Position numbers and translations under genes: made by a program. A DNA stretch of 64,000 nt from Alphaproteobacteria bacterium (GTDB lineage Bacteria > Pseudomonadota > Alphaproteobacteria > JAUHZY01). This document shows positions 7,427 through 8,532 of this stretch, piece by piece. Positions within the stretch are counted from its first letter, which is position 1. Every line of letters begins with the position of its first letter. The notes under the pieces were generated by a model. That model saw only the letters and a program-made list of their open reading frames with translations, was not told where the DNA came from and did no database searches. The DNA lies in NCBI GenBank assembly GCA_030425825.1, contig JAUHZY010000001.1, positions 838,834 to 902,833 on the forward strand, given 5' to 3'.

Positions 7427-7675
7427 ATGAAGAAATCTACAATTGCAATTGCTGCTATGGCTGGTGTTTTGGCTGTAATGTCTGCGCCTAAATCTGCTGA
7501 AGCTGGCAAGAACGAAAAATGCTACGGCATTTCAAAAGCTGGGAAAAATGATTGTGCCACAGCGTCTTCTTCTTGTTCAGGAAGCGCTAAAGTAGACAAT
7601 CAAAAAGACGCATGGATTTACCTTCCAAAAGGAACTTGCGATAAAATCGTTGGCAGCAGCAAAGAATCTGCTTAA
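7427..7675 (+). CDS. DUF2282 secreted Cys-containing precursor peptide (bufferin/HvfA-like RiPP precursor)
   Basis: RBS AAGGAGA 6 nt upstream. Signal peptide [26 protein letters not shown]. Core has [15 protein letters not shown]...SCSG...GTCDK with 4 Cys, the DUF2282 signature. Confidence 0.75.
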
Positions 7676-8532
7676 TGCCTCATAAAGTTGACCCAATGCT
7701 GCCAAAAGATAATTTTGTCGGCATTGGTCTTCGCCCCCCTCATTTTAAAGAAATCCTCGAGAAAAAACCTTCTTCTGTTGGCTGGCTAGAGGTTCACGCC
7801 GAAAACTTTTTTGTAAAAGGCGGCCCGTCCCTCCATTATCTTAATAAAATACGCGAAAACTACCCCATAAGCCTTCATGGTGTTGCCCTATCTCTTGGCT
7901 CTCCTACTATTGATGAATCGCACTTAAGAAAACTCAAAAACCTTACTGAAGCCATTCAACCATTCCTTGTTTCTGAACATGTCTCATTCAGCCGTGTGGG
8001 TGATGTCTTTTTAAACGACCTTGTTGCCCTGCCTTATACAGAAGAATCATTAAAGATTATTTGTCAAAACATCGACCACGTGCAAAACGTTTTAAAACGC
8101 CAAATCCTTGTCGAAAATCCTTCACAATATATGCGCTATAAACATTCAACAATTCCTGAACACGACTTCCTCAACGAAATGGTTGAGCGCACAGGATGTG
8201 GTCTTCTTCTTGATATAAATAATGCTTATATCAGCGCAAAGAACTTCGGCCTTTCTACAGAAGAGTATTTAGAAAAGATAAAACATGACCATGTAAAAGA
8301 AATTCACCTTGCAGGACATGCCGTGAAAAAGCTAGACGACAAAAAAACCATTCGAATTGACGATCATGGGTCTGAAGTCTGCGATGATGTTTGGGCGCTG
8401 TTTGAAAACTACATCAAACCCTGCGCCACACCTCCACCTGTTCTTATTGAATGGGATACAGACATACCTAACCTGGACACCTTGCTTGAACAGGCTACAA
8501 TTGCAAAACAAAAAAGCATTCAGAAGCAATGA
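7675..8532 (+). CDS. DUF692 / MNIO (multinuclear non-heme iron-dependent oxidase, MbnB/BufB/HvfB-like)
   Basis: VGIGLRPPHF...LEVHAENF...HGVALSLGS TIM-barrel DUF692 pattern. ATG overlaps precursor stop (TAATG). Confidence 0.8.
   Translation: MPHKVDPMLPKDNFVGIGLRPPHFKEILEKKPSSVGWLEVHAENFFVKGGPSLHYLNKIRENYPISLHGVALSLGSPTIDESHLRKLKNLTEAIQPFLVSEHVSFSRVGDVFLNDLVALPYTEESLKIICQNIDHVQNVLKRQILVENPSQYMRYKHSTIPEHDFLNEMVERTGCGLLLDINNAYISAKNFGLSTEEYLEKIKHDHVKEIHLAGHAVKKLDDKKTIRIDDHGSEVCDDVWALFENYIKPCATPPPVLIEWDTDIPNLDTLLEQATIAKQKSIQKQ

Follow-up and report, generated by a model that had tools for sequence, protein, structure and literature searches.

What does the short open reading frame (ORF) at position 7,427 of this 64,000-nucleotide stretch of alphaproteobacterial DNA (contig JAUHZY010000001.1; hereafter the window) encode, where does its translation begin, and how closely is it tied to the enzyme gene that follows it? 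A sequence-only reading had described a Sec-exported precursor peptide with a four-cysteine core, translated from an internal ATG and coupled to a multinuclear iron oxidase (MNIO). We consider it highly probable that 7427-7675 is bufA, the precursor gene of a bufferin-1-type (BufA1/DUF2282) peptide made on the ribosome and modified after translation (RiPP). Judged by its sequence, bufA adds an unremarkable new member to the already known bufferin family, and its peptide follows the family consensus.

The bufA gene and its start codon

The features that define the gene and its upstream region are as follows.
7427..7675 including the stop, + strand: bufA, BufA1/DUF2282 bufferin precursor, 82 amino acids (aa), identified from PF10048, homologues and codon-position mismatches
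7414..7420, + strand: Shine-Dalgarno sequence AAGGAGA, 6-nt spacer to the bufA ATG; AAGGAG is conserved in the relative L002
7367..7395, + strand: putative promoter-like footprint TTGCCT-N17-TATAAC, aligned with TTGGCT-N17-TATAAA in L002
7291..7326, + strand: intrinsic-terminator-like hairpin (7291-7319) followed by AUUUUUU, -17.9 kcal/mol, z = -4.3

The 82-aa peptide scores 86 bits against Pfam PF10048 (DUF2282, now named BufA1; cut-off 22.4, E = 1.7e-24), and the match spans profile positions 1-51 of 53. Among 5.8 billion proteins searched there were 484 homologues of BufA, and each of the 120 listed has PF10048 and a length of 81-103 aa. The precursor also falls within the range of 80-120 residues given for bufferin precursors (PMC11626156). 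As a comparison genome we used L002, a relative on an ENA metagenome contig whose BufA is 88% identical. Mismatches between the two bufA genes are distributed 10/2/36 over the three codon positions, which is the pattern of purifying selection. We searched for a second bufA elsewhere in the window and found none.

Reading the sequence directly and checking it by script, we placed the start codon at ATG 7427-7429, at the head of an 82-codon frame closed by a TAA at 7673-7675; the earlier assignment of ATG 7427 with its AAGGAGA ribosome-binding site was thus borne out. The range first proposed for the gene, 7427-7677, is right at its start and too long at its end, given that the coding sequence stops at 7675 and position 7677 closes the start codon of bufB. 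The ORF track had begun the frame 20 aa further upstream, at 7367. This codon had been referred to as an ATG and is in fact a TTG.

Translation from TTG 7367 would give a 102-aa protein in which the hydrophobic segment served as an internal membrane anchor. The frame is open from 7367, and such a protein would suit 'predicted integral membrane protein', the legacy label in Pfam, as well as JGI's 'uncharacterized membrane protein'. The extension is, however, unconserved. DNA identity with L002 is 80% (198/246) in the bufA coding sequence, with mismatches mainly at third positions, and drops to 50% (24/48, with an indel) across 7367-7413, and the L002 frame upstream of the bufA ATG carries two stops within 25 codons, the nearer being a TAA 5 codons before the ATG. 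No Shine-Dalgarno sequence precedes 7367, whereas a strong one precedes 7427, and the BufA homologues begin at the aligned M-K of the MKK start. Public gene callers likewise picked 82 aa, as seen in the identical sequence recorded on an NCBI contig of 1.66 Mb, and the peptide of the model system is exported and cleaved (PMC11626156). The TTG is, in addition, the first three bases of a conserved -35-like hexamer, and for this reason would probably lie upstream of the transcript, whose start is predicted near 7402. We regard a start at TTG 7367 as extremely unlikely. The sequence comparison with L002 and the homologues refutes it and supports 7427 as the true start, so that the 20 additional residues appear spurious, as had been suspected.

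That hexamer belongs to an arrangement, TTGsCT-N17-TATAAm, that is common to both genomes inside otherwise diverged sequence (window hexamers 7367-7372 and 7390-7395). A consensus promoter scan upstream of bufA listed no promoter; it passed over this site because the -10 element ends in C, and the rule demands T at position 6. We propose it solely because the same arrangement is conserved in L002, and the promoter is putative. Further upstream, the hairpin at 7291-7319 folds better than any of 200 shuffled sequences (0/200) and was overlooked by the terminator scan owing to its internal loop. It would end ORF385, the gene preceding bufA, and separate the two, and since so strong a terminator-like hairpin follows ORF385, bufA probably has its own promoter. 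Neither AAGGAGA (8 observed, 8.2 expected) nor TAATG, the motif at the end of bufA (170 observed, 173 expected), is enriched in the window; these motifs take their meaning from their position beside a conserved gene and not from their frequency.

The predicted peptide, its cysteines and its relatives

Within the precursor we distinguish two segments and four cysteine codons.
7427..7504, + strand: predicted Sec signal peptide, 26 aa, cleavage AEA|G (rule-based scan and hydropathy)
7505..7672, + strand: predicted core peptide GKNEKC...SSKESA, 56 aa, from predicted cleavage after residue 26
7520..7522, + strand: CysI, C32 (core Cys6), invariant; predicted disulfide with CysIV, by analogy to Buf1
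7553..7555, + strand: CysII, C43 (core Cys17), invariant, after an invariant Asp; predicted 5-thiooxazole, as Asp22-Cys23 of Buf1
7574..7576, + strand: CysIII, C50 (core Cys24), invariant, after a Ser; predicted 5-thiooxazole, as Ser30-Cys31 of Buf1
7637..7639, + strand: CysIV, C71 (core Cys45), invariant, at a short modelled helix; predicted disulfide with CysI

A rule-based scan and hydropathy agree with the Sec signal proposed earlier: an n-region MKK, a hydrophobic core over roughly residues 4-18 (Kyte-Doolittle mean peaking at 2.4) and a c-region SAPKSAEA. The A-E-A|G site fits the -3/-1 rule and has a Pro at -6; the remaining sites that comply follow residues 16 and 19, within the hydrophobic core or on its border. 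The same scan found no lipobox Cys and no twin-arginine (RR) motif in the BufA N-terminus. Homologues show an aligned small-x-small (A-x-A-type) site followed by a linker of variable length. Cleavage at this rule-based site would divide the precursor into 26 and 56 residues, in line with the mature length of about 56 aa first suggested. The predicted core has a monoisotopic mass of 5784.75, and we computed an [M+H]+ of 5785.76 for the unmodified peptide against 5775.68 for the predicted modified product (-10.08 Da for two thiooxazoles and one disulfide).

A script confirmed the four cysteine contexts as originally read, KCYG (C32), NDCA (C43), SCSG (C50) and GTCDK (C71). Loss of these positions among orthologues would have spoken against the assignment; all four stay unchanged throughout a 27-homologue and a 120-homologue alignment. 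Also invariant among the 120 are E30, G34, N41, D42, T45, G52, D57, D61, P67, G69 and G76. An AlphaFold2 (AF2) model built with the 120 sequences reached a mean predicted local distance difference test score (pLDDT) of 69, with 70-88 in the core and below 50 in the signal-peptide segment. It places CysI in a strand (29-33) and CysIV in a short helix (71-73), with a further strand at 63-67. The published description of BufA1 is of a two-stranded sheet and a short helix, with a disulfide joining strand 1 to the helix (PMC11626156), and the modelled secondary structure, the level at which the two were compared, is consistent with this beta-beta-helix. A PDB sequence search with the BufA family profile gave nothing at E <= 1, and a Foldseek search of the model against PDB returned noise only (best E = 2.2).

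The closest characterised counterpart is BufA1 (CCNA_03363) of Caulobacter vibrioides (PMC11626156), which shares the DUF2282/BufA1 family, the Sec signal peptide and the four conserved cysteines. The two central positions, which are modified in Caulobacter, stand in Asp-Cys and Ser-Cys contexts in both peptides, the CysI-CysII and CysIII-CysIV spacings (11 and 21) are the same, and the beta-beta-helix mini-fold is predicted here as well. In contrast, the core is shorter (56 aa here, 68 in Caulobacter), with 5 rather than 11 residues before CysI, and the residues that follow the two central cysteines are Ala and Ser instead of Lys and Ala. At the locus level, both organisms have a downstream BufB-type MNIO gene together with DUF2063 and DoxX genes (bufB1, bufC1 and bufD1 in Caulobacter).

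Other MNIO-associated peptides resemble this one less. BufA2 and the Buf_6/12Cys peptides are also Sec-exported precursors with a BufB-type MNIO and a DUF2063 partner; a BufA2 identity was rejected, since NCBIfam NF050166 gave 30.2 bits (cut-off 60) and the peptide has four cysteines, not six, and no Cys-Lys motifs. The HvfA/EGKCG peptides (fontiphorin, gonophorin, bulbicupramide) likewise combine a signal-peptide precursor, a related MNIO and a DUF2063 protein with 5-thiooxazole chemistry and copper binding, but they are repetitive and disordered, where the model here predicts a folded mini-protein. An HvfA/EGKCG (oxazolin) identity was discarded because the peptide has no EGKCG/GKCG repeat and its enzyme scores below the HvfB cut-off (210 bits against 360). 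The six-frame translations of the window contain no GKCG motif, and no EGKCG-type precursor was found. Methanobactin offers a broader parallel, in that an MNIO-superfamily enzyme, MbnB with MbnC, acts on a cysteine of a ribosomal peptide, MbnA, to make a copper ligand. However, BufB gives only 62 bits against the MbnB model (cut-off 325), its partner is a DUF2063 protein rather than MbnC, and the MbnA leader is not a Sec signal; the methanobactin product is an oxazolone-thioamide, secreted as a chalkophore for copper acquisition, in contrast to periplasmic buffering.

The junction with bufB and the displaced bufC

The partner genes and the element between them are these.
7675..8532, + strand: bufB, MNIO (DUF692) bufferin maturase, 285 aa, from Pfam and NCBIfam matches
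7673..7677, + strand: TAATG junction at which the bufA stop and bufB start share one A, read from the sequence and conserved in L002
5100..5891, - strand: bufC, DUF2063/HvfC-type partner, 263 aa in the public gene call, Pfam DUF2063 75 bits
4628..5092, - strand: doxX (bufD-like), directly downstream of bufC, Pfam DoxX 59.8 bits
6107..7264, + strand: ORF385, an orphan of 385 aa between bufC and bufA with weak sub-threshold matches

The bufB product matches Pfam MbnB_TglH_ChrH with 324 bits and the NCBIfam equivalog MNIO_BufB with 352 bits (cut-off 310), and its closest solved structure is 3BWW (E = 1.6e-36). Its ATG at 7675-7677 takes up the last A of the bufA TAA. This one-base overlap, noted before, is real and conserved in L002. 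No Shine-Dalgarno-like sequence occurs in the 20 nt before either candidate bufB start, and together with the overlap this makes termination-reinitiation coupling the most economical reading. On the sequence, translational coupling of bufA and bufB is plausible.

The further claim that the junction indicates stoichiometric co-expression found no support. Coupling would make BufB depend on BufA without setting a 1:1 ratio, and as a rule re-initiation is sub-stoichiometric. The inference fails, moreover, because TAATG junctions do not characterise the family: of 75 related loci with both bufA and bufB, the genes abut or overlap unambiguously in eight (L007, L009, L010, L011, L017, L018, L040 and L066), only one (L011) has TAATG, and most have spacers of 3-300 nt. 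It fails also because overlaps of 1 and 4 bases are routine in this compact genome, with TAATG junctions also, for example, at 36475-36479 (nadA/nadC) and 31990-31994 of the window, and because BufC, the partner that BufB requires, is encoded elsewhere, on the other strand and in a separate transcription unit. A hairpin that would bury the bufB start was considered and dropped. In the window RNA, 7650-7659 pairs with 7697-7706 (z = -2.2); L002 folds differently and no consensus structure is common to both, so we do not rely on it.

The order of the genes sets this locus apart. Colinear bufA-bufB-bufC has been described as strictly conserved (PMC12452194), an order that the window does not have. 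Here bufC and doxX lie inverted upstream on the - strand, followed by ORF385, then by bufA-bufB on the + strand (4628-8532) and by pnp after bufB; this puts bufC 1.5 kb upstream of bufA, on the other strand. In the Caulobacter locus, by contrast, these genes lie downstream of bufB, and the bufA stop does not overlap the bufB start. L002 has the same split layout (4573-9103), with two inserted genes. We compared the layout with the best 80 related genome loci, of which 64 had an adjacent bufB and enough downstream sequence. None of the 80 has bufC on the opposite strand, and all 64 informative loci are colinear. The split layout represents an architectural variant specific to the lineage rather than a system of a new kind, and it is the only unusual feature of the locus.

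Both displaced genes fall short of the Hvf models, with 43 bits for the bufC product against NCBIfam HvfC (below its cut-off) and 57.6 bits for the doxX product against the HvfX family (cut-off 80). In bufferin clusters at large, a doxX gene is common without being obligatory. ORF385 interrupts the buf cluster, apparently as an unrelated gene. It gives weak Peptidase_M91 and SprT matches below their cut-offs and carries an HExxH-like motif, HEMIH; among 1.84 billion representative proteins its only relative is the syntenic gene of L002, at 25-26% identity, in which the motif reads HEVVGH. ORF385 evolves far faster than its neighbours. Between the window and L002, identity is 88% for BufA, 66% for BufB, 69% for BufC, 76% for DoxX and 86% for polynucleotide phosphorylase (PNPase, the pnp product). 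As the buf genes were conserved while the ORF385 family drifted to about 25%, all four buf genes remain under selection despite the rearrangement.

The window has a GC content of 41%, and its PNPase finds its best named matches, at 63-65% identity, in Azospirillum and other Rhodospirillales, so the host would be a deep-branching alphaproteobacterium by sequence. Between bufB and pnp, a 190-nt leader (8533-8722, +) folds into a long hairpin (-58 kcal/mol, z = -4.2), similar to the autoregulatory pnp leaders that RNase III processes in other bacteria. Inside the 3' end of bufB, at 8474-8501, lies a promoter-like TGGACA-16-TACAAT. On the other side of the cluster, a three-gene ATP-binding cassette (ABC) importer (920-4631, +; solute-binding protein, fused double permease and ATPase) sits between a release-factor gene and doxX. 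Its best matches, all below cut-offs, are of phosphonate, thiamine and iron types, and it is absent at the equivalent place in L002 (3731-4576). The release-factor gene looks truncated at the left edge; we rejected a true truncation, as the gene simply runs off the window.

The rest of the window holds housekeeping genes, flagellar genes, an RTX protein and repeat proteins. Three FlgE-like hook paralogues and one FlgK are found among 39012-40520 (+), 49235-50728 (-), 54558-55955 (-) and 47748-49205 (-), and three hook paralogues are unusually many for a small genome. Inserted among the flagellar genes is the RTX protein (51076-54561, +), with 1161 aa and 27 matched RTX calcium-binding repeat stretches. 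At 26426-26582 (+) lies a 6S RNA gene, whose Rfam score of 53.6 bits exceeds the gathering score, and at 42803-42887 (+) a transfer RNA gene. Four medium-sized ORFs, at 12783-13921, 19612-21192, 43898-44911 and 46685-47728 (all -), have no Pfam match and may be lineage-specific.

A proposed pathway and its alternatives

The model system, Caulobacter Buf1, suggests how the product would be made. There, CysII and CysIII each lose 4.03 Da and are 5-thiooxazoles by nuclear magnetic resonance, while CysI and CysIV escape modification and are joined by a disulfide (PMC11626156). The thiooxazole assignment has been confirmed by selective labelling (10.64898/2025.12.15.693703), and the same chemistry has been assigned to HvfA/oxazolin (10.64898/2026.07.17.739211). 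The sequence-only reading, which had central thiooxazoles and an outer disulfide in characterised members, was therefore correct for Buf1 (PMC11626156; 10.64898/2025.12.15.693703). BufB and BufC are necessary and sufficient for the modification, for which neither DoxX nor the signal peptide is needed; export by the signal peptide and cleavage at the predicted site have been demonstrated, the latter by mass spectrometry, and the product, which binds copper, confers protection under copper stress (PMC11626156).

As the window peptide has an Asp before CysII and a Ser before CysIII exactly as in Buf1, we infer the same pathway here. Transcription of bufA would start at a promoter of its own that follows the ORF385 terminator, and translation, as comparative evidence shows, begins at ATG 7427 by way of the AAGGAGA sequence. 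Ribosomes ending at TAA 7673-7675 would probably re-initiate at the bufB ATG, so that BufB synthesis would go along with that of BufA, most probably at a reduced level. In the cytoplasm, the iron oxidase BufB together with BufC would oxidise Asp-Cys43 and Ser-Cys50 to 5-thiooxazoles. The 26-residue Sec signal is predicted to carry the peptide to the periplasm, with cleavage after AEA (Ala26). A Cys32-Cys71 disulfide may then lock the small beta-beta-helix fold suggested by the AF2 secondary structure, and the 56-aa product would chelate excess copper and so protect the cell. DoxX would be an accessory, dispensable for modification in the model system according to the literature.

Several observations weigh against this assignment. 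The canonical bufABC order is broken, and with it co-expression of BufC with BufAB is not assured. A comparison of the bufC/ORF385 intergenic region with the region upstream of bufA turned up only short repeats at chance level and no common motif. Unlike the Caulobacter locus, the neighbourhood has no SigF/NrsF-type regulator that could be seen among the window ORFs scanned. The CysII-CysIII spacing is 7, not 8 as in Buf1, and 7 is the norm among the aligned homologues. An AF2 model from the 27-sequence alignment was uninformative (pLDDT 44). Finally, homology is the basis on which we assign the modification, the export, the cleavage site and the binding of copper in this organism.

The broken order could mean that the peptide is still exported and, after the separation of bufC-doxX, no longer modified, leaving a periplasmic mini-protein that is simply rich in Cys and has ordinary disulfides or thiols. 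The layout is unique in the comparison (0/80 with bufC on the opposite strand, 64/64 colinear), and precursor genes without an associated MNIO may be unmodified (PMC12452194). Yet both bufB and bufC are intact genes that score with their families, and their products remain 66-69% identical between the two genomes while the inserted gene is at about 25%, implying continued selection; bufA and bufB are still tightly coupled, and both the Asp-Cys and the Ser-Cys context are retained. Loss of modification is, in our view, decidedly unlikely. A peptide modified by BufBC might instead serve a role other than copper buffering, whether with another metal, in redox or sulfur stress, or in association with a host. 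The DoxX association would suggest redox or sulfur stress, roles with other metals and stresses have been discussed (PMC12452194), no copper-homeostasis gene was seen among the window ORFs scanned, and the organism is a deep-branching alphaproteobacterium with a small genome (1.66-Mb contig). We think this very unlikely, given that copper protection is the only tested function of DUF2282 bufferins and that nothing in the sequence sets the peptide apart from the family consensus.

The same layout could also reflect a lineage that has re-wired its bufferin system, with bufC-doxX inverted and its promoter region shared with the fast-evolving ORF385 family. This would be a new architectural or regulatory variant if ORF385 were an accessory or a regulator, or if BufC expression independently controlled BufBC assembly, and it would sit in a small-genome, deep-branching alphaproteobacterium that may be host-associated. 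We judge such re-wiring unlikely, and retain the assignment of bufA as an ordinary bufferin-1-type precursor.

With this assignment, a gene often still labelled "uncharacterized membrane protein" receives a correct annotation, comprising its start, signal peptide, core and modification sites, together with a mass prediction that is directly testable. Existing knowledge of bufferins is unchanged. The locus adds one data point: a bufABC order described as "strictly conserved" can be lost without any of its parts escaping selection. The split cluster is relevant to genome mining where a pipeline demands that the partner gene come after the MNIO.

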